From Naegleria gruberi (lineage: Eukaryota), in assembly GCA_000004985.1 (NCBI GenBank), contig GG738869.1: a stretch of DNA of 64,000 bases. The stretch is one strand, 5' to 3'. This document shows positions 1-39,783 of the stretch, piece after piece. A program made the translations under genes and the position numbers. Each line of letters opens with the position of its first letter. Position 1 is the first letter of the stretch. The notes below the pieces were generated by a model that did no database searches, was not told where the DNA came from, and saw only the letters and a list, made by a program, of their open reading frames with translations.

Positions 1-424
1 CCAAACCCAAACCCAAACCCAAACCCAAACCCAAACCCAAACCCAAACCCAAACCCCAACCCAAACCCAAACCCAAACCCAAACCCAAACCCAAACCCAA
101 ACCCAAACCCAAACCCAAACCCAAACCCAAACCCAAACCCAAACCCAACCCAAACCCAAACCCAAACCCAAACCCAAACCCAAACCCAAACCCAAACCCA
201 AACCCAAACCCAAACCCAAACCCAAACCCAAACCCAAACCCAAACCCAAACCCAAACCCAAACCCAAACCCAAACCCAAACCCAAACCCAAACCCAAACC
301 CAAACCCAAACCCAAACCCAAACCCAAACCCAAACCCAAACCCAAACCCAAACCCAAACCCAAACCCAAACCCAAACCCAAACCCAAACCCAAACCCAAA
401 CCCAAACCCAAACCCAAACCCAAA
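1..424. repeat. Telomeric repeat tract, (CCCAAA)n on + strand = (TTTGGG)n G-strand; left chromosome end
   Basis: About 70 tandem hexamers start at base 1. Two variant units are present (CCCCAA near 52-57, CCCAA near 146). The C-rich strand reads 5'->3' into the chromosome, the orientation expected at a left end. The tract ends abruptly at 424 into unique sequence. Confidence 0.9.
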
Positions 425-3900: not shown

Positions 3901-4973
3901 NNNNNNNNNNNNNNNNNNNNNNNNNNNNNNNNNNNNNNNNNNNNNNNNNNNNNNNNNNNNNNNNNNNNNNNNNNNNNNNNNNNNNNNNNNNNNNNNNNNN
4001 NNNNNNNNNNNNNNNNNNNNNNNNNNNNNNNNNNNNNNNNNNNNNNNNNNNNNNNNNNNNNNNNNNNNNNNNNNNNNNNNNNNNNNNNNNNNNNNNNNNN
4101 NNNNNNNNNNNNNNNNNNNNNNNNNNNNNNNNNNNNNNNNNNNNNNNNNNNNNNNNNNNNNNNNNNNNNNNNNNNNNNNNNNNNNNNNNNNNNNNNNNNN
4201 NNNNNNNNNNNNNNNNNNNNNNNNNNNNNNNNNNNNNNNNNNNNNNNNNNNNNNNNNNNNNNNNNNNNNNNNNNNNNNNNNNNNNNNNNNNNNNNNNNNN
4301 NNNNNNNNNNNNNNNNNNNNNNNNNNNNNNNNNNNNNNNNNNNNNNNNNNNNNNNNNNNNNNNNNNNNNNNNNNNNNNNNNNNNNNNNNNNNNNNNNNNN
4401 NNNNNNNNNNNNNNNNNNNNNNNNNNNNNNNNNNNNNNNNNNNNNNNNNNNNNNNNNNNNNNNNNNNNNNNNNNNNNNNNNNNNNNNNNNNNNNNNNNNN
4501 NNNNNNNNNNNNNNNNNNNNNNNNNNNNNNNNNNNNNNNNNNNNNNNNNNNNNNNNNNNNNNNNNNNNNNNNNNNNNNNNNNNNNNNNNNNNNNNNNNNN
4601 NNNNNNNNNNNNNNNNNNNNNNNNNNNNNNNNNNNNNNNNNNNNNNNNNNNNNNNNNNNNNNNNNNNNNNNNNNNNNNNNNNNNNNNNNNNNNNNNNNNN
4701 NNNNNNNNNNNNNNNNNNNNNNNNNNNNNNNNNNNNNNNNNNNNNNNNNNNNNNNNNNNNNNNNNNNNNNNNNNNNNNNNNNNNNNNNNNNNNNNNNNNN
4801 NNNNNNNNNNNNNNNNNNNNNNNNNNNNNNNNNNNNNNNNNNNNNNNNNNNNNNNNNNNNNNNNNNNNNNNNNNNNNNNNNNNNNNNNNNNNNNNNNNNN
4901 NNNNNNNNNNNNNNNNNNNNNNNNNNNNNNNNNNNNNNNNNNNNNNNNNNNNNNNNNNNNNNNNNNNNNNNNN
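950..4973. other. Assembly gap (4,024 N) in subtelomeric region
   Basis: Uninterrupted run of n. The three >1,300-aa ORFs listed across it are artefacts of translating N. Confidence 0.99.
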
Positions 4974-5618: not shown

Positions 5619-6923
5619 TCAACAGAATAAGTTTTCAATCACTTCATTACCCATTTTCTCATTTTCTGACATCTCATTATCCTCTTCTAGAAGCGTTATT
5701 TTTAAGAATTCCAATCCAGGTTCAAGGTTAATTTTTTCAGTATCAAATAAAGCAGCTGATTTTTTTTGAATAACAGCTGGAGGATTAGTTTTACCACTTT
5801 CTAAATATTCCATAATTTTCAAATTACCAGATATAGAACTATCATCTAAAATAGATTCATGTGCATAATTGATAGCCAGTGGATTTTCCAAAATGGCTTC
5901 CATAACAATGTCACTATCTTTCTTGAGCTTATCACCAGCGAACTTGAGAGCTAGTCCTGTAAGAACTATGGCTTCTGTAACAACTTGTTTGTTATTTTTA
6001 AATTCAGTAAAATACTCCAATAATAAAGGTTCCATTCTTAAAACTGATAAGACAAACTCCTTGTTTTTCATCCACTTATTTGGAATGTATTTCCAGAAGA
6101 GGTTAGTATTTTTCATCTTGACTGAATGAATGAAATCATCAAAAGGCACTCTAATATCTTTGGAAGGGAAACCAATCTCTAGCGCCTTTTGAATGATATC
6201 ATTATCAGAATCGTCAATGATGACTCCTCTTAATGCTGACAGACCAGATTTCGTAATGGCTTCATGTATGAGAAATTTGTCAGTCCTAAGAGCCTCAGAA
6301 GCAAATCTAAGGGATGTTCCATCATTATCTATGGCTTCCAAAACTACATCCCTGTCGGACTGAAGGGTTGGTGAGGCGAATTCCAAAGCATGTCCATTGT
6401 TACACACAGATACCAGTACTATTTCCTTATTATTTCTCAATTCATAGGAGGCATGTTCAAGAGCTAAACCATTTTGTTGAACTATTCTTAACACAAAATC
6501 TGCATCATTCTGTAACTCTTTTGATGCATAGCTAAGGGCAAGTTTAGGTTCGAAAGCACTAACTTTATCCATCACCTCAATGTGGTTGTTGTAAATATCA
6601 CTCATTTGCAAGAATTCAAAATTTTTCATCTCTATCATAGCATCTACCAATTTGGAATTTTTCCATACTTCTGGTGTTATATATTTAATGACATCTACCC
6701 TTTCGACATCATTCATAACCAGGTCAATAATTTGATCCAACTTATCGGAATCTGAGCAAGTAACTTCCAATGTTTTGTTCATTGTTGTTAATAATTCACT
6801 TTCCATAAAAATACCAAATATTTTCCTTGAAATTTCTCTTGATTCTCCAGATCTAAACGAAAATCGAATATCATTTCTCGGAATTTTTACAAGCTCTCTA
6901 AGAATTTCAAAATTTGATACCAA
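5619..6923 (-). CDS. DUF4116-like repeat protein segment (about 45-aa repeats with ASxxLRNDKxxVLxA motif); probably the C-terminal continuation of the upstream kinase gene, in a different frame
   Basis: 434-aa ORF with at least six repeats of the form ALEFASPTLQSDRDVVLEAI / LALKFAGDKLKKDSDIVMEAI. It overlaps the end of ORF 6887-8887 by 37 nt in another frame, and no in-frame short intron joins them. Confidence 0.6.
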   Translation of the reverse strand: MVSNFEILRELVKIPRNDIRFSFRSGESREISRKIFGIFMESELLTTMNKTLEVTCSDSDKLDQIIDLVMNDVERVDVIKYITPEVWKNSKLVDAMIEMKNFEFLQMSDIYNNHIEVMDKVSAFEPKLALSYASKELQNDADFVLRIVQQNGLALEHASYELRNNKEIVLVSVCNNGHALEFASPTLQSDRDVVLEAIDNDGTSLRFASEALRTDKFLIHEAITKSGLSALRGVIIDDSDNDIIQKALEIGFPSKDIRVPFDDFIHSVKMKNTNLFWKYIPNKWMKNKEFVLSVLRMEPLLLEYFTEFKNNKQVVTEAIVLTGLALKFAGDKLKKDSDIVMEAILENPLAINYAHESILDDSSISGNLKIMEYLESGKTNPPAVIQKKSAALFDTEKINLEPGLEFLKITLLEEDNEMSENEKMGNEVIENLFC

Positions 6924-8887
6924 ATCAAATCAAGTGGTAATAGAGTACACAGAGCTGGCATTAAACGAATTGCAATAGCACACAAGCGTACATTCCTGGA
7001 TAAATTATTATCTAAAAACTTGTAAACTTTTGGGTTTTTCATCAAAGCTCGCTCAATAAAATTCATATCTTTTTTCAAATAATCAGCATATTCAAAATTC
7101 TTCTTACTAAATGAGAGAGACTGCAGTATTATAGCTTCATTGTTTCTGATAATATCTGGTTGAGTTTCTAACCAATCACGTTTGATTATTAAATGATTCA
7201 AAATATCTGATTCAAAAATAAAAGGTGGAGGGTTTTCCCACAAAGAAATATCCAATCCCACAGTGGTACGTTCTACCTGTCGTTTTGAAAGGATATCTTT
7301 CACGAACCACTTGCTATTCAAATTCTGTTGTGGAATAGTGTTCTTAATTGTACCAGGAGTAAGAAAATCCTTCATACAACACATGACCATGAGAATATCT
7401 TTGTCTTTCTTCAATCTATCAGATGCAAATTCAAATGCATAGGGGTTTAGAGACGTGGCTTTCAGAACAATGTCCTTGTCATTTCGTAATTCTTCAGAAG
7501 CAAACTGAAGAGCAAGTGGACTAAACTCCATTGCTTTAGAAACCAATTCTTTGTCTGATCTCAGAGTTGGAGAGGCAAACTTGAGTGTATCATGATATAT
7601 TTCCAAAGCTATTTCAATAATTTGCTTATTATTATTGAAATGTTTAACTAATTTTGCATCTCTAATTAAAACTCTTCTCAATAACTTTCGATCGTATACT
7701 AAGCCATTATCGGAACCAATAAAATCAATTACTTTTGGATTCTTAAGAATAGACAAGTAACAAACAAGTTGATTATTTTTCAACTGATTTGAAATGTATC
7801 TGAATGAGCTAGCATTATTTTGAATGGCAGAAAATACTACGTTCACATCATTTCTGTAAGAGTATTGCAAATACTTGAGAAGATTTCCATGTTCAGAAAC
7901 CATACCAATAATTTCCTTTTTGCTTGCTTCCTTCCTTAAATAGTAAACTGCTCTCACTAAATTAATTTCCTTCTTTTGTAAATATTTAATATCCTCCCTG
8001 ATTTCGTTTGCAAAATTATTTCTTAAATTAATATCATAAGCCATCATCCATTCACTCAAATACTTCAGTATTTCATATTCATCAGCATTAGTTGATTTGT
8101 GCAGACCAACCAAATTTCTAATACTGACCCCAAGTGCATACACATCAGAGGCCAATGAATAACGCGTATGAATGAGCTCGTATCTTGCTTCATTTGAAAT
8201 TTCAGGCGCTAAAAAACCATCAGTTTTACCAGTTACTGGTTTTTGGTTAACAATTGAATCATCTTGTGTCTTGAATGAGTATCCAAAATCTGCTACTTTT
8301 ACATGAATGAATTCGTTATCTAATTCTTTCACTAAAATATTTCCCAACTTGATATCTCCATGAACCATTTTATGGATATCACAAATGAAAATCAGTGCAT
8401 TCATAACCTGAAATAAAATTTGTACAGCTAGTACATTTCCAACAACATGACTCCTTTTTAAATCTATCAAGGAACCATGTTCAGCATATTCCATTTCTAG
8501 ACAAGGAATATTTCTCAATGTTCTATATTCAATTGTTCTAATAACATTATCATGGTTTAGTCTGAGTGCATGATTGGCTTCTATTGAACCAAGTTCTGAT
8601 CGAATTAAATTTATCTTCCACACAGTGCTCTTGTCATTTCTTGTAAATTTATAAATTGCACCTTGTCCTCCTTTTCCCAATACTTTCACTACAACTCCTT
8701 TATCAATAAAATGCAACAACTTGTCAATTTCTTCTTGTGGTATTTGTTCTGTTTTCTGTTGGAAATCTTCTGCAAAAAGAATACTTTCGGAATCGTTAAA
8801 ACGTTGCTCCTTTGGATTGTTTGTGAATTGTGAGGTTGTGCATTGACTAGCGGTATTCTTTGATAGCTCTTTTCTCTTTTTTACCAT
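6887..8887 (-). CDS. Ser/Thr protein kinase domain followed by DUF4116-like repeats
   Basis: 666-aa ORF. It has a glycine loop (LGKGGQGAIYKF), a catalytic loop (HGDIKLGNILV), DFG (VADFGYS) and APE (FLAPE). The C-terminal repeats read KFASPTLRSDKELVSKA / QFASEELRNDKDIVLKA / EFASDRLKKDKDILM. Confidence 0.8.
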   Translation of the reverse strand: MVKKRKELSKNTASQCTTSQFTNNPKEQRFNDSESILFAEDFQQKTEQIPQEEIDKLLHFIDKGVVVKVLGKGGQGAIYKFTRNDKSTVWKINLIRSELGSIEANHALRLNHDNVIRTIEYRTLRNIPCLEMEYAEHGSLIDLKRSHVVGNVLAVQILFQVMNALIFICDIHKMVHGDIKLGNILVKELDNEFIHVKVADFGYSFKTQDDSIVNQKPVTGKTDGFLAPEISNEARYELIHTRYSLASDVYALGVSIRNLVGLHKSTNADEYEILKYLSEWMMAYDINLRNNFANEIREDIKYLQKKEINLVRAVYYLRKEASKKEIIGMVSEHGNLLKYLQYSYRNDVNVVFSAIQNNASSFRYISNQLKNNQLVCYLSILKNPKVIDFIGSDNGLVYDRKLLRRVLIRDAKLVKHFNNNKQIIEIALEIYHDTLKFASPTLRSDKELVSKAMEFSPLALQFASEELRNDKDIVLKATSLNPYAFEFASDRLKKDKDILMVMCCMKDFLTPGTIKNTIPQQNLNSKWFVKDILSKRQVERTTVGLDISLWENPPPFIFESDILNHLIIKRDWLETQPDIIRNNEAIILQSLSFSKKNFEYADYLKKDMNFIERALMKNPKVYKFLDNNLSRNVRLCAIAIRLMPALCTLLPLDLIWYQILKFLESL

Positions 8888-14315: not shown

Positions 14316-14589
14316 TTATGGAGCAATAAATACAAATACACACCATTAGTTCCATCCTTTAACATCACCAAGAAGTTTATAATTCTCAAAATGATTTTGA
14401 AATAATAGTTATGGAAATGTTTGATTGTTTCTGAAAATGGCAAGTTAGTTTTAAGACCAAATATATTTTTGAAATGCTGTGATTGCTGTGATTGATCCAT
14501 TGGCTGTTTATTACCCACCGCCTATCAATAGGAAATTTTGATTAGAAGAAATACAGAATGGCTAATAATTTAAATATTAAGGAAAAGGT

Positions 14590-14663
14590 TACAGCGAGCG
14601 GGGCTGGAACCCGCGACCTTAAGCGTGTTAGACTTACTATCTAACCAACTGATCTATCGCTGC
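14590..14663 (-). tRNA. tRNA-Val (anticodon AAC)
   Basis: The reverse complement is GCAGCGATAGATCAGTTGGTTAGATAGTAAGTCTAACACGCTTAAGGTCGCGGGTTCCAGCCCCGCTCGCTGTA. The anticodon arm TAAGT-CTAACAC-GCTTA gives anticodon AAC. T arm is GCGGG/TTCCAGC/CCCGC. The D-stem is weak (3 bp) and position 1:72 is a G:U pair. Confidence 0.7.
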
Positions 14664-15935
14664 ATACATATTTAATAATTTATTAAGAATGAATCAAGCA
14701 TATCAGTTTTGCCACTATCCTGTTCAATCGAGGAGAGTTATTTACCTTCACTTCAATAATATTATTATTATTTACTCATGATGCTGATGAATAAAAATTA
14801 TCCTACCACAACCCAATGCTTCTAATCACTCTTGTGTACATCTACATTAAATATTTTCCCTTCTTATTCAATATTCATCAAGATTATCAACAATTTCTAT
14901 CAATACATGAAGTTTCACCTTCTGCCCTTTGACTTTAAAAAATTTGACGAGTTGATTGTGTGAAAGATGATGAACGAAATATGATGCTTGAAAAAATAAT
15001 CAAAAACAAAAATTTATCATCAATTCATTACCAACAATTTTATTCTGTGATGATTATCATAATAGGTTCTTGACTAGATTTTAAATAACTTTATACACTA
15101 CTAGTAGGGATGAAATGGAATCTACTCATGTGATTTTTAGGGAATTTAATCAAAAGATGAGGATTTTGCAAGTCAATGATAAGAATCACAAAAACTATTT
15201 ACCGACTGATGACTCATAACCTCTTCAGATGTTGGTAGCTATCTATTCTACTCTATTGAAGTTGGTCCGAGCTTTTTGCTATCAACATAACAACATCAAA
15301 ATATTAATCTTCTCATTTACATCACCAATAACAACATGTAACCAACAACCATCCCAGGATAGCCTCTAATAATGGTCTACTAGCATCCCAGAGAGTTTCT
15401 ATTCTTTTTAGTAGTTGTTGGTGAAGTTAGAAATGTTTGAAGATTTTAACATCATTATTAGCAATCTACAACAACTAATTATTCTTTATGATTAATATAT
15501 ATTGTTATTAATGGTAAGGACAATAATTACCAACAAAACAATTATTAGGATAATGGAATATGCAAAACCATCCGTAATCATCATCAATTATCATTATTCT
15601 GTGGAGCTGAACAGTGTGTCCTTCGTGGAAGATATCTTCCGTTGATTCATCACAATTAAATATGAATCTTGTGGAAAACCTCCATTGACAATTTTTAACT
15701 TCTCATCATATTAATTGATACTATTAGAAGTCACAACTTGTTTTAGGTTCAAGTTTGTTGATAATTTACTGTGAGATAATACTAAGAGTTGTAGCCATAA
15801 ATAGTACAGTTGGTCAAATGAGCATTGTTTAAATTTCATGATTTTTGAGCGAATAACCAATTCTCTCAAATATTACTCAAAAGAAAAAAGGTGAATATTG
15901 AAATTGCACATTCTATTGTTTTTAATCTTTAAAAA

Positions 15936-16523: not shown

Positions 16524-17768
16524 ATGGGACAAGGCAAATCATCTCAATCTCCAGCCACTGTTTCCGATCAGTGTTCTCTCTCACGATCACAATTAAAATT
16601 CACCTCCAAATTATTTGCAAGTTTAACCGCTTCCATGAATCATCATCATCATGATAATGATCATCAATCGAAGAAACAAGAAGAAAATGTGGTACTTTCT
16701 CCAATTTCAATTTTTATTAGTTTTCTAATGACTTTGAATGGAGCAAGAGGTGAAACTCTTGAACAATTATTTAAATTATTATCAATTGATAATGAGAAAA
16801 GTTTGGGAGAATGGCGAAATCAAGAGTTGGTTCCTTATGCGAATGGAATTATTGAATCGATTGGAAGTTCTCAAGTGTTAAAGATTGCTAATGGATTGTT
16901 TGTTGCTGAGAGAATTGAATTACAGAGCGAGTTTGAACAATTAACAAGTAACATTTTCAAATCTTGTGTGCAATCGTGTAATTTTGATAATGCTGAATCG
17001 AGTGCTGATACAATTAACAAATGGGTTGAAGAAAAGACACAAAAGATGATTAAGGGATTGGTTTCTCCTTCAGCTTTCAATTCAGAAACTTTGTTAGTTT
17101 TGGTGAATGCTGTTCATTTTCTTGGAAATTGGAAGTTGCCATTCGATCCAAATGATACTTTCGATTATGAATTCACATCTCACGTGTTTCCAAATAAGAA
17201 GATACCAACCATGAGTAAATATAATGAGAGAGTTGCTTATGGAAATGAGAAGGATTATCACTGGGTGGCATTGCCTTATTCTGATGCAAATTATAGAATG
17301 ACCATTATTACAACAAGAGAAACAGAGGTTAATGAACAAAATGAAAGAGAATTCAATAGTTGGTTCTGTAAGAAATTGGATTCTGGGAAGAGTTTGAAAC
17401 AATTATTTTCAGTTAGCTCAGAAGAACTCTCTTATATGTACATTCCAAAATTCGATATTGAATATTCAATTGATCTGACTGAGACACTATCCCAAGATCC
17501 TTTCAGTGTTAAAAATGTATTTTCCAATGCAGATTTTAGTGAAATGACAACAGTGGAAACTGTCAAAATTTCAAAAGTCATTCACAAGGCAATTATTAAA
17601 GTGGATGAATTTGGAACAAAGGCAGCTGCTGCAACTGCAATTATTGCTGAGGAAGATAATGACATTGAAGAGTTATATTTCACTGCTGATAGACCATTTA
17701 TTTATTTCATTTCTCATGTTCCATCTGGATCTGTAATCTTTGTTGGAAAATTTATTGGAATGCCTTGA
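16524..17768 (+). CDS. Serpin (inhibitory-type), single exon, 414 aa, no signal peptide
   Basis: Reactive-centre-loop hinge EFGTKAAAATAIIAEE. C-terminal serpin signature FTADRPFIYFISH...VIFVGKFIGMP. Shutter/breach segment LVLVNAVHFLGNWKLPFD. The N-terminus MGQGKSSQS matches an N-myristoylation consensus rather than a secretion signal. Confidence 0.85.
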   Translation: MGQGKSSQSPATVSDQCSLSRSQLKFTSKLFASLTASMNHHHHDNDHQSKKQEENVVLSPISIFISFLMTLNGARGETLEQLFKLLSIDNEKSLGEWRNQELVPYANGIIESIGSSQVLKIANGLFVAERIELQSEFEQLTSNIFKSCVQSCNFDNAESSADTINKWVEEKTQKMIKGLVSPSAFNSETLLVLVNAVHFLGNWKLPFDPNDTFDYEFTSHVFPNKKIPTMSKYNERVAYGNEKDYHWVALPYSDANYRMTIITTRETEVNEQNEREFNSWFCKKLDSGKSLKQLFSVSSEELSYMYIPKFDIEYSIDLTETLSQDPFSVKNVFSNADFSEMTTVETVKISKVIHKAIIKVDEFGTKAAAATAIIAEEDNDIEELYFTADRPFIYFISHVPSGSVIFVGKFIGMP

Positions 17769-18046: not shown

Positions 18047-21000
18047 ATGTTAAAAAGTTCACTTGTTGTGGACGAGAGTGGAAAACCTGGAGTTGATGGA
18101 CACTCTGGTAGAAGGTTTGTACTTTTAATTGTTTATATTGACGTTTGGCATGCTAGTGGAACGGATGGTAGCTCAGGAAGTGTAAGTTTTGATGAGATTC
18201 GAATAAATTGATACTAAACGATGACGACAAATAGAGTGGAAGTTCAGGGAGAAGTGGTGGAAATGGTCAAAGAGGAGCAAATGGCATGAACGGAGGAAAG
18301 TAAGTTGTTTCGTCAATATTTCACAAGTTTCGAATGTATTTTGAACTTAAAAGTGGAGGAAAAGGCACAAATGGTAGTCAGTAAGTATATCTATCATATC
18401 ATCATGCAATTTAACATTAAAATAGTGGTACAAATGGAACTAGCGGTCAACATGCCAAAAACATTAAAGTGACAATTGAAGGATTAGACCACAAGTCAAT
18501 TGTTGTGAAAGGTTCTGCTAATGAAACTTTATGCTTGGATGATGGATCTGTCAGAGCTCTAGTATTCCTTGCGAATGGAGGTGATGGAGGGCAGTAAGTA
18601 TTGAACTGACATATTTGAAGTGACAAGTGACTTTTAGTGGAGGCAATGGTGGACGTGGAGGTGATGGAGGCAATGGTGGTCATGGTGGAACCGGTGGCCA
18701 TGGAGGCAGAGGACATAACGGTCCTAGAGGATGTTCTGGAGGACATGGAGGAGAGTAAGTTTAGTTTCATTTAGTTTTATAAATTTATATACTTATATAC
18801 TTTTGAAATAGTGGAGGAGAGTAAGTAATATTTTGGAAATATTTGATCACTAATTAAATGTGGCTTAGTGGTGGAAAGTAAGTTTTGGTTTTTTAGTTTG
18901 GAAATTAGAAAATTTAAAGTGGTGGAAAGTAAGTCTTTCTAATTTTAGTAATTCCATATTTATTCGAAATTAAAAATAGTGGTGGAGATGGAGGAGAGTA
19001 AGTTTCATCAATCTATTCATACAATTAACCTTCCAAAAATAGTGGTGGAAATGGTGCCAAGTAAGTTTCAAATTCTCATTCAGTCAACCAACCCTTAATT
19101 GTCAATTTTCCAAGTGGAGGAAATGGCGGAAATGGTGGATCAATCATTATCGAAACTCATAACCCATCTCTTCTGAAATTCATTCATACAGAATATCGAT
19201 CTGGAAAGAAAGGCAAAGGAGGACATGAAGGAAGTGGTGGTTACAATGGAAGTTCTGGATCTGGTGGTTCTGGAGGAAGTCCAGGATCAGGTGGTTCTCC
19301 AGGTCCTGGTGCAAGTGGTCAATCGTTACATTGTGGCCACAGTGGAACTCATGGAAGAGGTGGTCAATCAGGAAGTTCAGGAAATTTGGGAAGATGGTAA
19401 GTTGACTAGAAAATTTAAGTTGATTAAATTTTCATAGTGGAGTTGAAGGTCAGGATGGACAAGATGGTAATGAAGGAACTATTCAATTCACTGTCTTTGA
19501 TCCAGTCACTAATCAAGTGTTGGATCAAGGTAGCTCAGTGTTTGATTTAGTGGTAAATTCGTTCCAGTTGACTGCTGTTGAAGATGATGGAGTTTTTGAA
19601 CCTGGAGAAGCTGTTTTTATTTCAAATGTGAAGGTGACCAATCAAGGTGGTATGATATTGCCTATTGGAAGTGTCATTTCCTTTCCAACAAGTTTGGGAC
19701 AACAAAGTTTCGTTTCGTCTGGAGCTTTTTATATTTTACAACAAGCTCTGCATCCTGGTGAGACTTTTATAATTCCATTTCAATTTTTTGGAACTATTTC
19801 AGATACTCCAGAGCCCCAGCCATCATTGTTGGGTCATTACAAGTCAATTATGCCAATTCAATCTTTGGCAACTTTACTCACATCTCCATTCGAAACTTTC
19901 CTAAAGAATGATTATACTATTCAATATCCAGTTCAATTAGAATCAATCATTGCACCTCCTCAATTAGGAAGAACCGAAAGAGGAATCATAACTTTAAATT
20001 TTAGAAACATTTCACAAATTAATTATGGATGCAATGACAAGACTCATTTAAAGTTTAGTTTAGTCTTTGATCCAAGATTTATTGTGCATAATGAACCTAA
20101 TTTGAATGGAGTTAATGGAGTAGAAGAAGACATACCAATGATTCCACCAGGAATGACATTTTCAAGAAGTTTCCAAGTTGAAATTAATGATCTAGCTCAA
20201 TTCTTTGAAATTGTTCCATTTAAGGCAAGTTTATTCTTGAGAGGAAAGAAAATTGAAAATGCAGAAAGCATCATTAGATTAACTCCCAACTTTACCCCAA
20301 TCGCCAATCCATCTCTGAATCCATTCGATGTTTTATTCTTCACCGATAGACACATTCAAAGACCTGAATTCTTATGTTACGTCAAAATATTCGAAGGTTT
20401 AGGATTATCAATCAATATTTGGGATATTGAAAGATATGGAAGTGCTTCATTTATTAGAGGAACCACAAACAGACATCCAATTTCCTGGGTGAATGGCGGC
20501 TTTGAGGGTAAGATGATAATTCTTCCAATGCTCAACCAGGGAGATGATCAACATTTGGGAGCATCTGATATTCTACAATTATTGAGAGGACCTAATTGGA
20601 GAGATGATCATACACATGCAACGAATGGGTCTTTATTATTTGTGGGAAGTGTTGATGAGGCCAAATTTAAAAGTCGTCTCTTTTCTCCAGTTATGGAAAA
20701 GGAAATTCCTGAAAGTGAGCTAAAGGAAATGTTTCTACTCAACTCGCCAAATGATGGACATTTAGCCAAGAGAGTGAATGATTATATTCAGAAGAATTGC
20801 TTGAAAAAAGCTCAAAGTAGAATCTTTGTTTCACACAATGTCAAATATAATCCACAAAAAAGTGGCGCGCTGTCAAAGACTACTTTGGGAACAGCATTTT
20901 ACAAGGAATTACCATTGACAGTTTCAGATAATCTATTCTTTGTTCCATCAATGAGTGGAAATTCTCAAAATTTCTTGATTATTGATGCTCAGGATAATTT

Positions 21001-21694
21001 GAATTCCAATCAATTTATAGTCAATTCTAATTTTGGAAGATTGTTTTATTCAGTGATGATTTCTCTTCCATTGGAAAAGAAGTTGAAATTGTTGAGACAA
21101 CCGACAGAATGGTTGAAGAATTTGACATTTGTTGATGAAACTGGAAAGATAGTGAGCTATGTCAGTTCCATTATTCTTTCGCTTAATTATTGCATGTTTA
21201 TGGAAATTATTTATAAGGAAGAAATTGGAAGATATACCAATATTATCTTGAAAGATTTCGAATCAAACATTTCAGAATATAAGAATAATCCTCACTGTCA
21301 AGTCATTGCAGAATCATTATACTTTGTAATTACCAAATTAAGAAAAGATTTAAAGTGGAAAGGAATGTTACTCTCCAAAATCAAAGATAACAAACAATCA
21401 TTCTCCAAATTCTGCAAGCCTTTCCAAAAAACTCTCTTTTCCTTACTTGATCCAGCTCAAATTGATTTACTTAAAAAGGAAACAAAAGAAAAGATTAAGA
21501 ACATTACAACCAAACAATCATTTGCAGTCAATTTGAATTTCATTCAAAGACCACTCATTGATGATTATCATCACACATTGGAGAATCAGCTCACTAAGAA
21601 TGTATTCGATTCTGCATCGAAAGCTCTTTCAAAGAATTTCAAATTTGCTTCAGAGGAAGTTACCAAAGCAGGAGCCGAATTCTTAAATTATTAA
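18047..21694 (+). CDS. Glycine-rich / collagen-like (GXY then GGX repeat) protein with a large unknown C-terminal domain; 13 exons
   Basis: Exons are 18047-18114, 18157-18181, 18235-18299, 18354-18380, 18426-18593, 18638-18754, 18812-18820, 18869-18877, 18920-18928, 18980-18997, 19043-19060, 19115-19396 and 19438-21694. Introns are 41-57 nt with GTAAGT (one GTTTGT) 5' sites and AG 3' sites. Splicing keeps the GXY register (GKPGVDGHSGRS|GTDGSSGS|GSSGRSGGNGQRGANGMNGG...). Three consecutive exons are only 9 nt (tggaggaga, tggtggaaa, tggtggaaa). The last exon matches ORF 19517-21694. Confidence 0.7.
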
Positions 21695-21815: not shown

Positions 21816-23261
21816 ATGTCTCTAAGCAAAATCAAAGGACCCTTTCAATTTCCATTGATCGGATCAGCTCCCTACATTTGGAGAAAAGGTGGTGTTACCA
21901 AAATGGTTCATGTATTCCGATCGTTATATCAAGATTTTGGACCAATTGTTGAATTATCGGCATTGGGAAAGAAGAGTGTTGTAATCTTTGATCCGGATAT
22001 GTATTTACAAGTGCATAGAGCATGTGGATCGTGTCCATTTGGAGCTACGGACACACTGTGGATGTTACATGCCTACTTTGAGAATCGTAAGAAATTGGAT
22101 TCTGGATTTATGAAGATGGATTATGGAAGTGGTGAGGAGTGGATTCGTGTGAGGAAGCCAATGCAGAAGGGTTTGTTTGTTCCAGAATCTTCTACGTATT
22201 ATTCTGAACATTTGAATGAAGTTTGTCAAGATGCTTCCAGGTTGATTGTAATGGAAATGCAAAAGGGAAAATCATTGCATGAATTTTTACAGAGATTGAG
22301 CTTTGAAATGGTTTCTTATTCATTGTTGGGGAAGAGGATGGGCGCTTTGACAAATGATGAGCCATTGTTGAGAGCTACTATTAGATCAATTGAGTGTGCG
22401 AGTGCCATGATGATGAGTCCAATACAGGAATATAACATGACCTTGAATACTAGATTGTGGAAAGATTGGGTCAAGAGTGTAGATTACATGTTGGAAAGAA
22501 CTGCTGAAATTATTGAAAATGCAATTCAGAGTAAGAGCAAAAAGTCATATATTGACATTTTGAGGGAAAATAATGAGTTGACAATGAGTCAAATTGTTTC
22601 AAATATTCCTGGATTAATGATGGCTGGATTTGAGACTGTGGCTTCAACTCTAAGTTGGACATTGATTCATTTGGCTCAAAATGAACATTGTCAAGCAATT
22701 TTATATGAGGAAATTCAAAGAGTTCTTGGAGATCGGCCATTCCAAAAGGATGACATTTCACACATGCCTTATTTGAAGAGTACCATTAGAGAAGTTCATC
22801 GTTTGACTCCAACTGCCTTTGCAATTCTCAGAAGAATGGACGAACCTGTAGTGATTGATAATTATGAAATCCCAGCTAAGGCATGGCTCTGTTTCAGCCC
22901 TGTTGGTATTTCAATGGATCCGAAATTTGTGGAATCTCCAGAAGAATTCAATCCTGGACGATATCTCAATAGAGTTGCAAGAGAGTGGCCACTTTTTGAT
23001 CATCCACTGATGAGAGATGGTTTCGGATATGGTCCAAGAAAATGTTTGGTATGTTTTATTACAATTTGAAAATAATTTAATATTGACTATTTCATTAAGG
23101 GTTTCCGATTGGCTGAGATGGAAATTTGGACAGTCATTGTAACATTAATAAGAGATTATCAAATATCACTAGCTCCTGGTACTAAAAAATTCGATATTGT
23201 CAATCATGCTGCAACCTATCCATCTCCAACTCCTCAATTAATATTTAAAAAGAGAACCTAA
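21816..23261 (+). CDS. Cytochrome P450, 2 exons
   Basis: Heme-binding motif FGYGPRKCL|GFRLAEMEI is split by a 51-nt intron at 23049-23099 (GTATGT...TTAAG). Exon 2 is 23100-23261 and ends at TAA. K-helix ExxR is present (TIREVHRL). No hydrophobic N-terminal anchor is seen (MSLSKIKGPFQFPLIG). Confidence 0.8.
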
Positions 23262-23376
23262 ATAGTGAAACTTGGTTCCAAAGCAATCTATTTATAAACG
23301 ACCTATCTTATAAAAATTTACCAAATATTCTCATTCACATGATAGGTCAGTAAGAGAGAAGGCTGCCTCTTAATTT

Positions 23377-25431
23377 TTAAAATATTAATTTTTTTGCATT
23401 ATACACTGATCCTACCATATACAACAAATAAACTTGAGTTGTAATTTCAATCAATTCATCATGAATTTCATCAAAGTTTGGTCTATTATTTGGATCCATA
23501 TCAACACATTTCAATCCCAAATAACGAATCTTACTAGCTTGTTTGTTGTATCTGGAAAACTTGGAACCTGTAAATAAACTATCTAAAATAGCAGCTGTGT
23601 TAGGTTTGAATTCTGTTAGGAGTTTTTGCATTATGACTCCAAAGCTGTAAATATCCAAAGATCTATCAATTAACTCTGTGTTTTCTTGTCTATTTCTCAA
23701 TTCTGGTGCAAAATAGTAGAATGGTATTTCGGATTTGATGTAAGAAACTATATCAGTTTTCTCAATATTTGGAGAAACATCAAAATCTGATAGTTCGACT
23801 TGGTGAATAATCTCTGAATCATTAATTCTAATCTTTTTGACCAACAAGTTGCTAGTTTTGATATCAAAATGAATGACATTCTTTGCATGTAAGTGTTTGA
23901 AAATATCCGAAACCTTAACAAGTGAGAATAATATTTGAAGAAGTTCTGAAAGTGTTGAGCCAGATGGAGCAGAGAAAGAATCCAATGCATCATCGAATAA
24001 TCCAATCAATTCTCCTTCACTATTTGTTGAACTATTTGGAATGATATTTTCCATTTTCTTCAATTTACAAGAAATAATTTGAGCCATCATGTAGGTGAAA
24101 TATTCTCTTTTAGATATAAAGCTAGTGAATTCAGTTTGTAAAACAAGATCAGCTTTAGATTCCAAACTAAATTGGAGATTATTCTTGAGGAATAGTTTTG
24201 GTAAAGTGTACATTGTAATGTAGTTTGCAAATGGCTCCATCTCTTCTTCAGTCAATAATTCTAATAATGATGCTACATCAACTCCGGAACCAAGTATTGC
24301 TTTGATATCTCCATTCGTTTTCTAACACATTATTATTCGAAAGTTCAGAGAAAATACAAACCTTAAAGTGATGAGCAATTAACAATCTTGTAATTTTGGG
24401 AAATCTTTTTCTTTCAGCTACTTGAATTGGTTTCTCTCCCTTTTAGTTATTGAAATAATTTAGTATATTCCATTAAAAAGAAACTTACTGGCTATTACAC
24501 TATAGTTTCTAATAAAAAATTGAAAACTTACTGGCTATTTAAAATCATTTAACAATTAATTTCTAAATGTACATACACACTGAATTGTTGAGTGATTCTC
24601 GAATATTTTAATTATAACTTACCATCTTATTCATTGTGTAAACAAAACTAATCTTGATAACTTACATTCTAGTAAGAGTTAATAAATAAATTGAAATTAA
24701 TTGAGAATACTTACACACTTTAAATAGTTAATAAATTCAAACAAATATTCAATATTCTATTCACTTACACACTGAAAATATTGTTATTTCTAATAGAAAA
24801 TAAAACTTACTCCCTAATTCATCATCACTTATTCGAAACTTTAAAATTCCAACAATTACTTACTCCCTAAAAATCATATCACTCAAATACTTTAATTCCA
24901 TTCAATACTTACTCCATTTTGGTAATCAATTTCTGGAAAACTTTTCAACAAGTATTTCACAACTTGAAATTGTTCATGTTCACATGCAATGTATAACAAT
25001 GTCCTTCCCATATGTCTATTCTTTCTTTCGGGAATGAAAACATAAAGTAGAGATTCCAGATCATTGATTCTGCACAATTCTTCAACATTTCCATGTTTAA
25101 TATGATAAACAGCTAGTAATGCATTATACATTTTGGGAAATATTTGAAAAGTTGTTATCCGTGGCTCCCATGAATTCCCTACTAGGAATCTAAATAGTGG
25201 ATCACTTGGCATTCTGAAAGGATAATTTAATGGAAATTCAAATTTAAAATCAAAGGGTTCTTCCTAGGTTTCGAATAACAATTAAATTAGAATAATTTTG
25301 ATCAAACTAACTTCATAAATTTTAAAAGAAACTGTCCATTCCGCAATATTTCCATCAGTAGCTTGTACAGAAAACCCATCATGTAATAGTTTTTTAATTT
25401 CAGTCAACTCTAACCCCACTCGTCGAAGCAT
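23377..25431 (-). CDS. UEV/UBC-fold domain + ankyrin-like segment + protein-kinase-like domain, joined through nine 3-nt micro-exons
   Basis: Exon A is 25312-25431 (MLRRVGLELTEIKKLLHDGFSVQATDGNIAEWTVSFKIYE, UBC-fold N-terminus). A 48-nt intron follows (GTTAGT..CTAG). Exon B is 24913-25263 (EEPFDFKFEFPLNYPFRMP..., no HPN-Cys so UEV-like, then LLYIACEHEQFQVVKYLL ankyrin-like). Nine 3-nt exons sit at 24864-66, 24811-13, 24769-71, 24715-17, 24666-68, 24623-25, 24577-79, 24532-34 and 24489-91, spelling GGCCNMCPP. Each is flanked by AG|NNN|GTAAGT, with 39-51-nt introns between. Exon C is 24362-24439. A 40-nt intron follows (GTTTGT). Exon D is 23377-24321 and has a kinase C-lobe (HFDIKTSNLLV, DFD, FAPE, DIYSFGVI). 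The N-lobe is degenerate. Confidence 0.55.
24483..24912 (-). repeat. Tandem array of nine about 40-55-nt intron-like units, each beginning GTAAGT/GTATGT and ending AG, separated by 3-nt in-frame spacers
   Basis: On the + strand the motif (a)acttac recurs at 24483, 24526, 24617, 24660, 24709, 24763, 24805, 24858 and 24907. The unit bodies have diverged but both splice signals are retained in every unit. Confidence 0.7.
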
Positions 25432-25729
25432 TTTTTTATAATGGAAACTTTGTAATCAGTTCAACAGATCTTTAATAACAGGGAATATTGAAGAAGGCTT
25501 GTCAGTATTAGAATGATTCAATAGCGCAACTTTATCGAAAGCAATACAATTTATGTATTATTTGATTTGTAATTGATAAACATCGGAATTAGGATTTTCG
25601 CCAATTTTATGATGGATTTCATAGCTAGATGATATTTTTGATAGAATTTAAAAAAATGCGAAAAGCTTAAATAAAATTATTAAGGATTTATTTCATCATT
25701 ATATTAGTTGATCCTCATCATGAAATCCT

Positions 25730-28700
25730 TTAAGCAAATGGAGCCCAACAAACAACACCTAGAGTGGTAGTTGTAGCAGCAGCTGTAGTCCACCACTTGT
25801 TAGTTGGAGCAGTGTAAACATAGTTAGCATAAACAACAGGACCAGAGCTTGAAGTAGCAAGATAATCAGTGAAAGCAGCAGTTGAAGTACCATCATCCCA
25901 AGTACCAGCACCAGAAGTATATGTCATTCCGAGAGGGAAGGTAATTGATTCAGCAGCTGGTAATATTGTTTGAATGAAAGTCTTTTCAGCAGCACTTTGA
26001 ATCATTACGAGTTTGGCATCCGATCTCCAATACTTGCAAATATCAGACATTACACTCTTGGTGTAGCCTGAAACAAACTTGGTGTAAATATAACAACGAC
26101 CAAGAGTGGCACTACAAGCAGTCTTACGAGCTGCACTATTTTCAACATAGGCTGGTGGTTGTGGATTGTATGGAGCAATAACACTGGCTGGACCCTTAAT
26201 GGTACCAGTAGCATATTGTGAATCTCCGAAAACACCAAAGGAAATGGAATCTTCTGTTACATCACCTTCAACAGTCAATGAGTAGGTAAAGCTTGAACCC
26301 TTAGCAATTGTGTAGACTCCTGGAGCACTTTCAAAGGAGAAACTGTCCTTGTTGGTAATTGGTTCTACACCTAGATAGACAGGGAAGTATGGATTGTAAT
26401 TATAGAAGGCATCTTGATTATAACCAGAGGCCATAGCCAAAGAGAACTTCTTGACACCACTTGGAGCACTTGATGCAACAGCAACTGTGTAATTGAATTG
26501 AGATCTGACCCAATTGGTAGACAAAATATTCTTGATAACAGATGTAGTCTTTCCCTTATAAGTGACAGTCATACCACTGTTTGCAAGTGGAACCAAAGTC
26601 TTGGTTTGGGAAGATGTGACTGTGTTACATGAGTTATCTACAACCAATTGGTAGACATTGGCAAGATTATTCCAATCGACATAGAGTGGATTGTTGGTAT
26701 CATAGTTCATTCTTTGAATTTGAACTTTACCCAAAGCACTTGTCAAACCAACACCAATACCAATAGCTAATTGTCTCCAATTCCAAATACCAGTACCAGC
26801 ATACTTGCTAACTTCAGCATTTGTGGAAACACCAGGAGACCAGGAATTAAGATCTGCTGATCTCAAAGTAGCTTCAGAACATGGATTACATCTACTACGA
26901 GAATCATTCCAAAGGCAGTTTGAGCAGTTCATTCCAGGGAATCTGTTTGATTTACAATAATTTGGAACAGAACCATATCTGAGAGGGTTGGCAGAGAAGG
27001 AGCTAGTACATCCACTACAACTACAAGGTTCTGTGGATTCACCGTCAGTTACGTGAATAATCATCTTGTTTACGATACTCTTTCTACCATAGCTTACCAT
27101 TTGGTCAATAGCAGCATTAATACCAGCAATTGAACCAGTTCCTGACTTTAATTGGGAAGCAGAGCTAATCTTGGACAAGACAACATCAACACTAGTACCA
27201 CTGTTAACTTGGAGGTGAGTAGTAATGCTTGAGGCAAACTGAATGATACCAATGTTTGTTCCAGTTGGTGAGATGTTGGAACCGAATCCCCTAGTAACGT
27301 TACCCATAAAGCTCTTCATCTTGATCCAATTTTCATCAGAAATAGAACCACTACCATCGAGGACAAAGATAATGTCCATATCAAGAGAACAAGTACAACT
27401 GGTGTATTGAACTGTTACAGTAGCACTTGATGAAGTACCATCTTGATCAGAAACAATAGTATATTCGAATTGGATAGAATCACAACTGTTGGCAACTGGT
27501 TTCACTCTAATAACTTGACTATTAGCAGGATCGTTTGGATTCAAAATAGTTGGAGTACCACTGGCACAATATCCAGTTGGACATGAGATACTAGCAAACT
27601 TGAAAGTACCACCAAGAGAATCATAATCGTTCGACAACAAGGTACTAACAGAAATGTCAACTTGGGCATTATACTTGGTAGAAACTACGTCATTGACAGC
27701 GATTGGAGGAGAAGCAAGAGGAGTAATAGTAATATTTGCAGAAACAGTAACTGGAGCATCAACATCACTATCGCTAACACCAACAATGAACCAACAAGAT
27801 GAACCAACAAAGGTTGTTTGTCTGAGGAAGCTAATCTTATTGGAGACAACAGAGATTGAAGAAACCAGAGTAGAAGTACAGGTACCTGTGTTTGTAATTG
27901 AAGTAAGCTTTAACTTGTCAGCAGTGTCAGCATCATAAGCATTAGAAACAGCCAAATAGTCAATAGTTTGTGCAACGTTGGTAGCTCTGCTTACAGAGTA
28001 AATATGGTTATAACTTGGAGCAACTGGAGCAGTATTTGGTTGATTTACGATAATCTTACAAGAAACTGTTTGACCAGCAGTATTAGAATAAGAATAAGTA
28101 GCATAACAGTTATCATTGATGCAGGAACGAGTACTATCTGCAGTATAAGTCCACTTGCTTGAAACCTTTGCAATTGTACCAACCTTAAGATTTGCAGTAG
28201 AGACAAGATTGATAGAGGCTGGTTCTGAGCCAGAAACCTTTACGAGAGCCAATCTCAAAGAATCTTCGAATTGATTAGCAGCATCATTCTTAGTGGCAGA
28301 AATGTAATAGTCGATACAGTTGAGAGCTGAACCAACAATGTTGATTGTATAAATGTAAGATGTTGTGAGTTGACCGTCTGTGAGGTAAACGTAGAATTGT
28401 TGGGTACCAATGAAAGAATTTGCATAAGTAAACTTGACTGATCCGTCAGTGTTCAAAACTACAGATGTACCAGAATTTTGATTTGGCAAGAGAGCAACTG
28501 AGGCAACAGTGACAGAATCACCATCAGCATCACTAGCACCAACCAAGAGATTGTTCAAGATTGTTGTTGGATTTGAGTAATTTCTAGTAACATTGGCAGT
28601 CTTGGAAGTACCTTGTGGTGGAGTATTGGTAATTGTAACAGAAACTTGTCCTGAAGTACTGAGTGGACCATCAGTACAAGAATAAGAGAAGGAATCAGAG

Positions 28701-38408: not shown

Positions 38409-39783
38409 TTACAAAATCATGCATTTGCCACCAGTCTTCTTTGCTGATTTGTTATCTTGCTTGAATCTTTCAGGATGCAAAACAACAGTGATGGCCAAAT
38501 TGAAACATTCCTTCAAACCAACTTGTGTCTTGGCCGAACATTCACAGTAAGAAATACAGTTGACTTCCTTTGACATTTGTTCACCCATTTCCTTAGTTAT
38601 TGGTGTAAGACCTTGTTCTTTCAATTTCTTTAAAGTGGCATCGTGTTCTCTCATGTCAACCTTCAAACCACACAAAATAATTGGAACAGCTGGACAGTGC
38701 TTACGCAATTCTGGAATCCAACGATCCTTAATGTTAGTGAATGATGATGGTTGAACAACTGAGAAACAAGCAATGAAAATTTCTGTATCTGGATAAGACA
38801 ATGGTCTCAAACGACTATTTTCAATTGTTCATCATCATTAAAATTATTAAATCAAATGGATAGAGTTAATTCACAACATTTAATATTAATATAGTAGAGA
38901 GATGGTGTAGTGTGTTAATAGTGAAGAAGAGGTGTCAAACAAATTATTATTAGAATCAAGTATGAAACTATTCGAATATTATTATTCTAAAACTTACTCA
39001 TAACTGTAAAATGTTGAAGGTTGTTAATATAATGAATAGAAATATAATACATACTCTTCTTGACCAGCTGTATCCCACAAACCTAATGACACTGTATGAT
39101 TTTCATACATGACATTGGCACAATAGTTATCAAAAACAGTTGGAACATATTCTAAAGTGGTGTTATTAGAAAGTCGTCATATTTTAAAAGCATGGTAATT
39201 AAAAGGATATCAGAAATTGATAGTATCATAACAAGATGAAGTGTAGGACTATGCATAAACAAGAAATTGTTTGTTAGAAACTTACCAGTTGGGAAGGAAT
39301 CAGTACTGTAACTAATTAACATGGAAGTTTTACCGACAGCACCATCACCTATAGTGGAAAATAATTATTTGTTATTAGAATGGTTGTTGTTGTTGTTTTG
39401 ATGGTTAGTCATAAGGTTTAGTTGTTTAAAGTGGAAAGTGGTTGATGGTGGTTTGATGTTTAGTTTACATTAATCATGATTGTGTTTTAGAGGTGAAAGA
39501 ATATTCGTTATGAATGTGAAAGATTATCGCGAAAGTCATGGATAGGGTTGAAATTGTTGTTGTTGTGGTTAGAAAGTGTAGAAATTTAACCAGAAAGTGT
39601 ACGAAACAATATTCGAAAAGGATCAAGTAAGAGAAAGCATCAAGTAATAATGATGGAAAGAAGAAGAAAATTTGTTATCATAATCAGATGGTAGAATTAA
39701 AAAATTCGAAACAAAACGGAATAATTAGAAACTAGACTAAACTTTTACATACCAACAACTACACATTTAATATTAGTATCCAT
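38409..39783 (-). CDS. Rac-like Rho-family small GTPase with CaaX box, 5 exons including a 6-nt micro-exon
   Basis: Exons are 39753-39783 ([11 protein letters not shown]), 39286-39348, 39055-39151, 38998-39003 (TTATGA) and 38409-38814. Introns are 404, 134, 51 and 183 nt with GTATGT/GTAAGT 5' sites. The spliced product reads [79 protein letters not shown]...KCMIL. The 6-nt exon supplies the conserved DYD. Confidence 0.75.

Follow-up and report, generated by a model that had tools for sequence, protein, structure and literature searches.

Can a gene carry a run of consecutive exons that each consist of a single codon? This question is raised by a locus in a 64,000-nt stretch of the Naegleria gruberi genome (contig GG738869.1, assembly GCA_000004985.1; the whole stretch is referred to as the window). 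A gene with ankyrin repeats and a kinase-like domain is encoded on the minus strand at 23377-25431. Within it, an interval of 473 nt (24912-24440) holds nine units of three nucleotides that are set between ten short introns. In the reading that we favour, the array is genuine and consists of mini-introns with single-codon exons, duplicated in tandem; it would be spliced one unit at a time and would deliver its codons into an ankyrin loop, being kept since failure at any unit is destructive. We put the probability of this reading at roughly 60%.

The chain and its single-codon units

The chain is located between an exon that ends at 24913 and an exon that starts at 24439. When the minus strand is parsed, ten introns of 39-51 nt are obtained (46, 50, 39, 51, 46, 40, 43, 42, 40 and 49 nt). 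The donor is GTAAGT in nine of them and GTATGT in one, and all ten have an AG acceptor. The units between the introns are GGA, GGA, TGT, TGT, AAT, ATG, TGT, CCA and CCA. All nine are flanked as AG|NNN|GT(A/T)(A/T)GT, are 3 nt long and in phase 0, and none is a stop codon. The initial annotation had described nine such units with spacers of 39-51 nt and a resulting in-frame insert, GGCCNMCPP. Both points are confirmed by the parse, as the spliced open reading frame (ORF) of 506 codons continues across the chain as ...EIDYQNG-GGCCNMCPP-GEKPIQ..., with every unit in phase 0.

The pattern AGNNNGTAAGT has 11 matches in the window, compared to 1.40 expected, and none of 100 shuffles reaches 11. Eight of these matches are inside the 473-nt interval, and the one remaining unit carries GTATGT instead. 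This density is far beyond chance. The three matches outside the chain were considered as 3-nt exons and rejected. One is a chance match explained by a tRNA-Val(AAC) gene (14587-14664, minus strand), and the other two are ordinary exon ends in a neighbouring gene.

In the direction of transcription (minus strand throughout), the chain opens with intron i1 (24867-24912; 46 nt, GTAAGT...TAG), which shares its start, GTAAGTATTGAAT, with introns at an ankyrin boundary of a paralog (contig L005, see below). Unit 1 (GGA, Gly; 24864-24866) is followed by i2 (24814-24863; 50 nt), the nearest relative of i1, and by unit 2 (GGA, Gly; 24811-24813). Intron i3 (24772-24810; 39 nt) resembles i9. Unit 3 (TGT, Cys; 24769-24771), i4 (24718-24768; 51 nt) and unit 4 (TGT, Cys; 24715-24717) come next, then i5 (24669-24714; 46 nt), which has TTATTAACT in common with i4. 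Unit 5 (AAT, Asn; 24666-24668) precedes i6 (24626-24665; 40 nt), whose CACAATGAA also occurs in the partial first intron of a second paralog contig (L002, see below). Unit 6 (ATG, Met; 24623-24625) precedes i7 (24580-24622; 43 nt), whose 3' end CTCAACAATTCAG is similar to CTCAACCATTTCACAG in L002. Unit 7 (TGT, Cys; 24577-24579) is followed by the sole GTATGT donor, which opens i8 (24535-24576; 42 nt, GTATGT...TAG). Unit 8 (CCA, Pro; 24532-24534; TCA in L002), i9 (24492-24531; 40 nt), unit 9 (CCA, Pro; 24489-24491; TGT in L002) and i10 (24440-24488; 49 nt) complete the chain. Part of intron i10 is also seen in L001, a sister-strain contig. No RNA family was detected when 24300-25000 was searched against Rfam.

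If all nine triplets are spliced in, the junction contains GGAGGATGTTGTAATATGTGTCCACCA, with the flanking exon ends being ...GATTACCAAAATGGA and GGAGAGAAACCAATT.... A direct junction from 24913 to 24439, devoid of the triplets, would read AATGGA|GGAGAG.

Splice-site retention and origin of the array

As the initial annotation had noted, the spacers have diverged while the splice sites are kept. In an alignment of the ten chain units, mean column identity is 46%, and most pairwise z-scores between interiors are below 2. In contrast, the donors agree at 59 of 60 positions, and no change is seen in the ten AG or in the nine 3-nt spacings (the spacings are not nine independent observations if they were passed on by duplication). 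Even with the neutral per-site identity set at 0.6, the probability of retaining at least 59 of 60 donor positions is 2e-12. Indels must have occurred, given the spread of spacer lengths between 39 and 51 nt, yet none is found within AG-NNN-GT. Retention of any single chain intron leads to an in-frame stop codon or a frameshift. The triplets have a G+C content of 44%, compared to 17.5% for the intron interiors. Tandem Repeats Finder, applied to 23000-26000, reports no array in the chain, the divergence among the units being too large. An intronic minisatellite should show likeness over the whole unit length without an excess of conserved splice motifs, which is the opposite of what is found here, and the units are also kept in a paralog. 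As judged from the sequence, the chain is not a decaying intronic repeat. The initial annotation had named an intronic tandem repeat as the outcome that would overturn its proposal; this is disfavoured by intact splice sites amid near-saturated interiors and by a paralog chain that corresponds unit by unit.

Two readings had initially been offered: the triplets are successive single-codon exons, or the whole interval is removed by way of stepping stones. Both are supported in part, and they collapse into one. No internal AG of the chain directly precedes a GT. When an internal acceptor is used, the triplet that follows it stays in the mRNA, since the next donor is found only after that triplet. 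Thus, stepping-stone removal would amount to triplet inclusion. If the internal sites were never used, nothing would preserve them, and this is the main argument for inclusion. The maintained sites thereby point, indirectly, to the presence of the triplets in the mRNA.

Comparison with a paralog bears on the age of the array. Over 2288 nt, the window is matched at 98.1% identity by L001, a metagenomic contig of a sister strain. From the same sample stems L002, a contig that starts within a chain and carries the ortholog (97% amino acid identity) of NAEGRDRAFT_73958, a protein with 53% identity to the host gene product. Upstream of its ankyrin-2 exon, L002 reads ...AAAAG|AAT|GTAAGT(43 nt)|TGT|GTATGT(41)|TCA|GTAGGT(48)|TGT|GTAAGT(42)|GGAGAAGCA. 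Its TGT|GTATGT corresponds to host unit 7, including the unusual donor, and the CCA of the host and the TCA that follows in L002 differ in a single base. The introns preceding matched units have short 3' motifs in common (CACAATGAA, CTCAAC) but are otherwise at background similarity. All visible donors, acceptors and spacings are kept in both lineages. Because L002 shows the same AG|NNN|GT chain at the homologous position, we consider the array to be older than the split of the host gene and NAEGRDRAFT_73958, whose intron interiors no longer align.

The deposited paralog sequence (XP_002671040.1; P0254, NAEGRDRAFT_73958) reads ...LVDYKNG-GCHNSC-RNHHDV..., which corresponds to six one-codon exons in a public gene model. 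This model skips the 81-nt ankyrin-2 exon (L002 219-299) and, judged by L002, one TGT unit, and it is probably mis-modelled. The residues GCHNSC are the output of automatic gene modelling and do not prove splicing.

A third paralog contig, of the NAEGRDRAFT_76961 type (L005; ENA ERZ929261, contig k127_374854), has two 38-nt introns in direct tandem at the boundary of ankyrin repeats 1 and 2 (1628-1703). They are about 80% alike and are joined by a 0-nt exon (...AATTAG|GTAGGT... at 1665/1666). A third similar intron is found at the next repeat boundary (1791-1828), and the ankyrin exon has exactly 29 codons. By its sequence, this arrangement is a formal ratchet point in a protist.

Several features suggest that the array arose by duplication. 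Neighbouring introns are among the most alike (i1/i2, z = 3.3; i4/i5, z = 2.1), as are i3 and i9 (z = 2.7), while most pairs are at background. The aligned chain units have an internal motif T(T/A)(A/G)GAA(A/T)T in common. Triplets are repeated: GGA occurs twice after the exon-final GGA, and TGT and CCA each occur as a pair. Although most pairs are at background similarity, we take the ten units to share ancestry. Partly on the basis of the automatic gene model, it can be proposed that about seven units (G C H/N N/M C S/P C/P) made up the ancestral array. Two later duplications, of a GGA and of a TGT unit, would then have led to nine units in the host gene, which fits with i1/i2 and i4/i5 ranking among the most alike intron pairs.

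The following scenario is thus proposed. A single ancestral intron, at the phase-0 position between ankyrin repeats 1 and 2, would have been duplicated in tandem together with an adjacent codon. About seven units would have been present in the ancestor of the host gene and NAEGRDRAFT_73958, and the GGA-GGA and TGT-TGT duplications would have raised this number to nine. Each unit of 39-51 nt would be recognised across the intron, as is assumed for other short N. gruberi introns. The chain introns would be removed singly, as an acceptor could hardly be occupied at the same time as the donor 3 nt beyond it. Each splice would restore a normal exon|GTAAGT donor and deposit one codon. With full use, GGCCNMCPP would be added to the hairpin loop between the ankyrin repeats, a loop that tolerates insertions; since all donor-acceptor pairings are in frame, shorter loops may also be made. 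The array would persist because any donor loss or intron retention gives a stop codon or a frameshift. As a hint only, the recurrence of Cys and His codons (C, C, C in the host gene and C, H, C, C in NAEGRDRAFT_73958) may point to a selected, perhaps metal-binding, insert.

The host gene and competing explanations

The host gene starts with an ATG at 25431. Its spliced ORF of 506 codons (coding sequence 1521 nt) is interrupted by 12 introns. Exon 1 (25312-25431; 40 codons) codes for an N-terminal UBC-like fragment. Intron A (25264-25311; 48 nt, GTTAGT...TAG) contains a TTCGAA. Exon 2 (24913-25263; 117 codons) codes for the remainder of the UBC-like fragment and for ankyrin repeat 1, ending with ...EIDYQNG (GGA). 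Beyond the chain, ankyrin repeat 2 is encoded by an exon of 78 nt (24362-24439; 26 codons, GEKPIQVAERKRFPKITRLLIAHHFK) that is homologous to L002 219-299 (GEAPFEIAKTNNFTKIMRLLIAHHLIK). Intron B (24322-24361; 40 nt, GTTTGT...TAG) is required for the frame and is at the same position in L002. The last exon (23377-24321; 314 codons and TAA) codes for a kinase-like C-lobe (HFDIKTSN, DFD, APE), with the N-lobe missing relative to the paralogs. All these features are on the minus strand. Contrary to the initial annotation, the chain does not join the kinase-like exon directly, as the 78-nt ankyrin-2 exon and the 40-nt intron intervene.

The proposed combination of a UBC fold with a kinase domain finds less support than the initial annotation had suggested. 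The UQ_con match is sub-threshold (22.9 bits, with a Pfam cut-off of 27) and spans only positions 4-63 of the 140 in the profile, falling short of a UBC/UEV assignment. The kinase match (PK_Tyr_Ser-Thr, 5e-17; Pfam PF00069 / PF07714) covers only profile positions ~103-258, which is the C-lobe. Pfam assigns two ankyrin repeats to the host gene, with Ank_2 above its cut-off of 27.3 both with the triplets (31.2) and without them (34.7).

An exhaustive profile search with the last exon retrieved four paralogs: NAEGRDRAFT_73958 (P0254), a protein kinase (P0113), NAEGRDRAFT_76961 (P0117) and NAEGRDRAFT_69871 (P0123). When the spliced product was used in a protein search, the only match was a weak one to a Rhizophagus kinase, and there was no self-match. 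Neither this search nor that with the last exon retrieved an annotated N. gruberi protein for the host locus. A scan of JGI metagenomes with an alignment of the host family matched 223 stretches of the pattern, none of which was confirmed.

A number of results weigh against the favoured reading. Ankyrin profiles score the product without triplets higher (Ank_4 36.3 versus 31.8 bits, Ank_2 34.7 versus 31.2 bits), and without the triplets the linker between the repeats has 6 residues, compared to the canonical 7. As this linker is nearly complete already, the nine codons would be a hairpin-loop insertion and structurally dispensable. A single 473-nt splice is physically possible, given that an intron of 404 nt is found in a Rac/Rho-like gene of the window (see below). 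To this are added the possible non-independence of the spacings and the automatic nature of the GCHNSC model. In the two protein searches, no protein derived from cDNA, expressed sequence tags or RNA-seq was found for the locus. The remaining points concern the state of the gene. About 100 residues (G-loop, VAxK, alphaC) are absent in the alignment to the four paralogs. Between the window and L001, 12 nonsynonymous and 4 synonymous changes are counted in the last exon (ratio of nonsynonymous to synonymous rates, pN/pS, 0.76), whereas the adjacent P450 gene has 1 and 9, respectively (pN/pS 0.03; Fisher p = 0.004). The last exon of L001 also has a 1-nt deletion, which could be a metagenomic assembly error. 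We consider the host copy to be under relaxed constraint, because of the pN/pS contrast, the lost N-lobe, the deletion in L001 and the failure of any annotated protein to surface. It may even be turning into a pseudogene.

Three alternatives have to be weighed against a genuine array. The one with most in its favour, and still a minority view, is that the array functioned in the ancestor and still does in the paralog but is a relic in the host copy, now an unexpressed or non-functional pseudogene. The deleted kinase N-lobe, the elevated pN/pS, the frameshifting deletion in the sister strain, the lack of an annotated protein in either search and the position about 25 kb from a telomere all fit with this. 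On the other hand, the spliced ORF is open over 506 codons in the window strain, in a genome of ~33% G+C, and all 12 introns have consensus sites. Introns i1 and i2 have come to differ by about 30% after they were duplicated, with donors, acceptors and triplets remaining identical, so that constraint outlasted the expansion of the array. With L001 possibly misassembled at the deletion, and with this explanation bearing on the present status of the gene and not on the nature of the array, we regard it as possible but doubtful. Less likely is a single 473-nt intron, with its donor at 24912 and its acceptor at 24440, in which the internal units are unused relics of a diverged minisatellite. The near-canonical ankyrin linker of the triplet-free product, its gain of 3.5-4.5 bits on ankyrin profiles, the 404- and 183-nt introns of the Rac-like gene and the descent of the units from duplication are all compatible with it. 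Unused sites should, however, decay like the interiors, and the contrast between intact donors (59/60), acceptors (10/10) and spacings (9/9) and a column identity of 46% is not expected. Nor is the survival of the unit structure in a paralog with unalignable intron interiors. Nine perfect GTAAGT/GTATGT donors with acceptors at the modal distance of 39-51 nt would be strong competitors of the distal pairing. Tandem Repeats Finder reports no array, and the 404-nt Rac intron lacks an internal GTAAGT.

The third alternative, independent gains of introner-like elements or reverse splicing with duplication of a 3-nt target, appears improbable. It would account for the identical flanking triplets at four of the ten introns (GGA/GGA twice, TGT/TGT, CCA/CCA), for the likeness of i1 to an intron (n5) of a neighbouring gene (z = 4.0 among 325 pairs) and to the L005 introns, for the roughly 10-fold enrichment of TTCGAA in introns, and for a case from another organism (L011, see below) in which introns are 71% alike though all four triplets differ. 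Six of the ten introns, however, lack identical flanking triplets. Likeness is highest between adjacent introns preceded by identical triplets (i1/i2, i4/i5), which is the prediction of tandem duplication. In addition, no near-identical dispersed intron family is visible in the 64 kb, and likeness among AT-rich sequences of 40 nt is weak evidence. In sum, tandem duplication of introns with single-codon exons remains the preferred reading.

Other tiny exons, related systems and surroundings

Intron sizes are quoted from hand-built models of four genes, all of which fit the standard genetic code. Sixteen other modelled introns of the window are 39-57 nt long and have the same donors. In the neighbouring DUF7932 gene (18047-21694, plus strand), which is also the gene of intron n5, the glycine-rich N-terminus is interrupted by 12 introns of 41-57 nt, and there are consecutive exons of 9, 9, 9, 18 and 18 nt (18812-18820, 18869-18877, 18920-18928, 18980-18997 and 19043-19060). 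Each micro-exon has the form T GGx GGx xA|GTAAGT and continues the GG[DN] repeat perfectly. As read from the sequence, this is a second set of duplicated units of a short exon and an intron. The 725-residue ORF of this gene has no match in the protein collection, itself included, and the gene thus appears unannotated. A Rac/Rho-like GTPase gene (39783-38409, minus strand; ATG at 39783) has an exon of 6 nt (TTATGA, 39003-38998). Only with this exon is DTAGQE-DYD-RLRPLSY obtained, the invariant switch II motif DTAGQEDYDRLRPLSY. It has introns at 39752-39349 (404 nt), 39054-39004 (51 nt) and 38997-38815 (183 nt), the first and the last of which are at odds with the strict intron size of 35-55 nt that had been assumed initially. 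Spacings between acceptor and donor of 0, 3, 6, 9 and 18 nt have been seen, all of which are multiples of three, as one would expect of sites in use and of a translated product. On the evidence of these two genes and of L005, N. gruberi does seem able to handle tiny exons.

JGI metagenomes were also scanned for the pattern GTAAGT-N(30-48)-AGNNNGTAAGT-N(30-48)-AGNNNGTAAGT, which does not amount to a census. Among the matches listed, most were (AAGT)n microsatellites and near-identical tandem repeats, and only one was informative. This contig (L011; Ga0207864_1037532, ~20% G+C, not N. gruberi) has the single-codon exons AAA, TGG, AAT and AGT at 1025-1403, with GTAAGT introns of 40, 35, 38, 44 and 36 nt, between two ankyrin exons of 29 codons. 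With K W N S, the hairpin gains exactly the four residues that it would otherwise lack for an ankyrin repeat of 33 residues, and the joined sequence would read ...NAKN-KWNS-TPLH.... Inclusion of KWNS lifts the Ank_5 score to 92.7 bits, compared to 73.5 bits without it. Of four further ankyrin profiles, three improve as well, while Ank_3 drops from 74.2 to 72.5. Here, the logic of the protein favours inclusion of the four codons. We can only speculate that Naegleria and at least one other AT-rich eukaryote build and maintain arrays of single-codon exons by iterated duplication of a codon with a mini-intron. Introns would be gained in this way while a protein loop grows residue by residue. As each donor-acceptor pairing is in frame, a nine-unit array could allow as many as 2^9 variants of the loop in the hairpin with which the ankyrin domain binds ligands.

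Single micro-exons of 3 nt are known from Drosophila homothorax (micro-Ex8; PMC7392893), MAP4K5 (PMC8632122) and plants (PMC8831610). Human RPS24 has micro-exons of 3, 18 and 22 bp (PMC12207440), and lipS from Dactylellina haptotyla has two 3-nt exons (PMC5639578). Like the chain units, known 3-nt micro-exons code for one codon between a canonical acceptor and donor, keep the frame and are often overlooked by annotation. They are, however, isolated or at most one per small cluster, usually with long flanking introns and exon-definition enhancers, whereas the chain has nine in a row, with introns of 39-51 nt, and these evidently are related by duplication. Full-text literature searches, the coverage of which is incomplete, retrieved no account of consecutive 3-nt exons and no Naegleria instance of such a chain.

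Zero-nucleotide recursive splicing at ratchet points is known from long Drosophila introns (bioRxiv 10.1101/006163; PMC8605326). It resembles the proposed splicing of the chain in its stepwise removal from 5' to 3' and in the recreation of a donor at each new junction. A ratchet point is, however, a 0-nt exon (AG|GT) that leaves nothing in the mRNA, within introns of tens of kilobases, whereas the chain has 3 nt between AG and GT, would leave one codon per step and has segments of about 45 nt. The juxtaposed AG|GT is absent from the window chain and is found only in L005. Micro-exon genes (MEGs) of Schistosoma (PMC10526429, PMC4350168) also have runs of symmetric micro-exons in multiples of three, and in-frame skipping can yield protein variants. 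In MEGs, most of the sequence coding for a secreted protein lies in exons of 3-81 bp, and introns can reach 5 kb. The chain, in contrast, contributes 27 of 1521 coding nucleotides to an ankyrin loop of an intracellular-type protein, has minimal introns and shows no homology to MEGs. It is thus not a schistosome-type MEG, with only the symmetry in common. Spliceosomal twin introns (stwintrons) of fungi (PMC5639578, PMC8469720) are likewise complex intervening sequences with consecutive splicing, and intron duplication has been discussed for them. In stwintrons, one intron is nested in a splice signal of another, whereas the chain introns are side by side and each is complete.

Duplication at the DNA level would have created additional functional introns in the chain, as it does in intron gain by tandem genomic duplication, which is reportedly the subject of the Rogers 1989 model and of Hellsten et al. 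2011 (Nat Commun). In the classical model, an exonic segment with AGGT is said to be duplicated, resulting in one intron, whereas in the chain an existing intron and a codon would have been iterated to ten copies.

If the triplets are spliced in, no longer run of minimal exons would be known. The chain would then also provide a natural test of acceptor-donor proximity, with a distance of 3 nt occurring nine times between near-minimal introns. This has a bearing on the mechanics of intron definition, the order of intron removal and the multiplication of introns. The locus may represent a concrete and datable case of intron gain by tandem duplication, with about seven units in the ancestor shared with the paralog and nine here. 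It also points to a blind spot of annotation, as neither of the two genes with micro-exon chains in the window matches itself among public proteins, and the paralog model strings together six one-codon exons without remark. RNA-seq data from N. gruberi exist (PRJEB23822; PMC6142364).

Further observations concern the introns of the window. Intron i1 (24867-24912, minus strand) and n5 of the neighbouring gene (18594-18637, plus strand) are the best of the 325 intron pairs (z = 4.0) and share the pattern GTAAGTATTGAA...TATTTGA(A)GTGA...TTTTAG. The palindrome TTCGAA occurs 38 times in the window, compared to 13.3 expected, and none of 100 shuffles reaches 38. The enrichment in window introns is about 10-fold, with at least nine sites in short GTAAGT introns, which make up 2-3% of the window. 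Example sites are 18198, 18329, 18963, 24336, 24832, 25270, 36184, 38971 and 39705, often in the context (A/T)TTCGAA(T/A)A. TTCGAA could be an intronic motif or a remnant of common intron ancestry.

At the start of the window (1-424), CCCAAA is repeated about 70 times, with a variant here and there, which corresponds to a telomere of the TTTGGG type on the other strand. Next comes a short unique stretch, in which a (GATGATAT)n-like microsatellite is found at ~671-735, and then a run of 4024 N (950-4973). Judging by these repeats, the window is a subtelomeric scaffold end, with the chain about 25 kb from the chromosome end. A serpin ORF (16524-17768) is 100% identical to an NCBI entry, 'predicted protein [Naegleria gruberi]'. 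At 5619-8887 (minus strand), two adjacent ORFs have multiple DUF4116 repeats, and one of them also has a kinase domain. Such a pair is typical of lineage-specific subtelomeric gene families.

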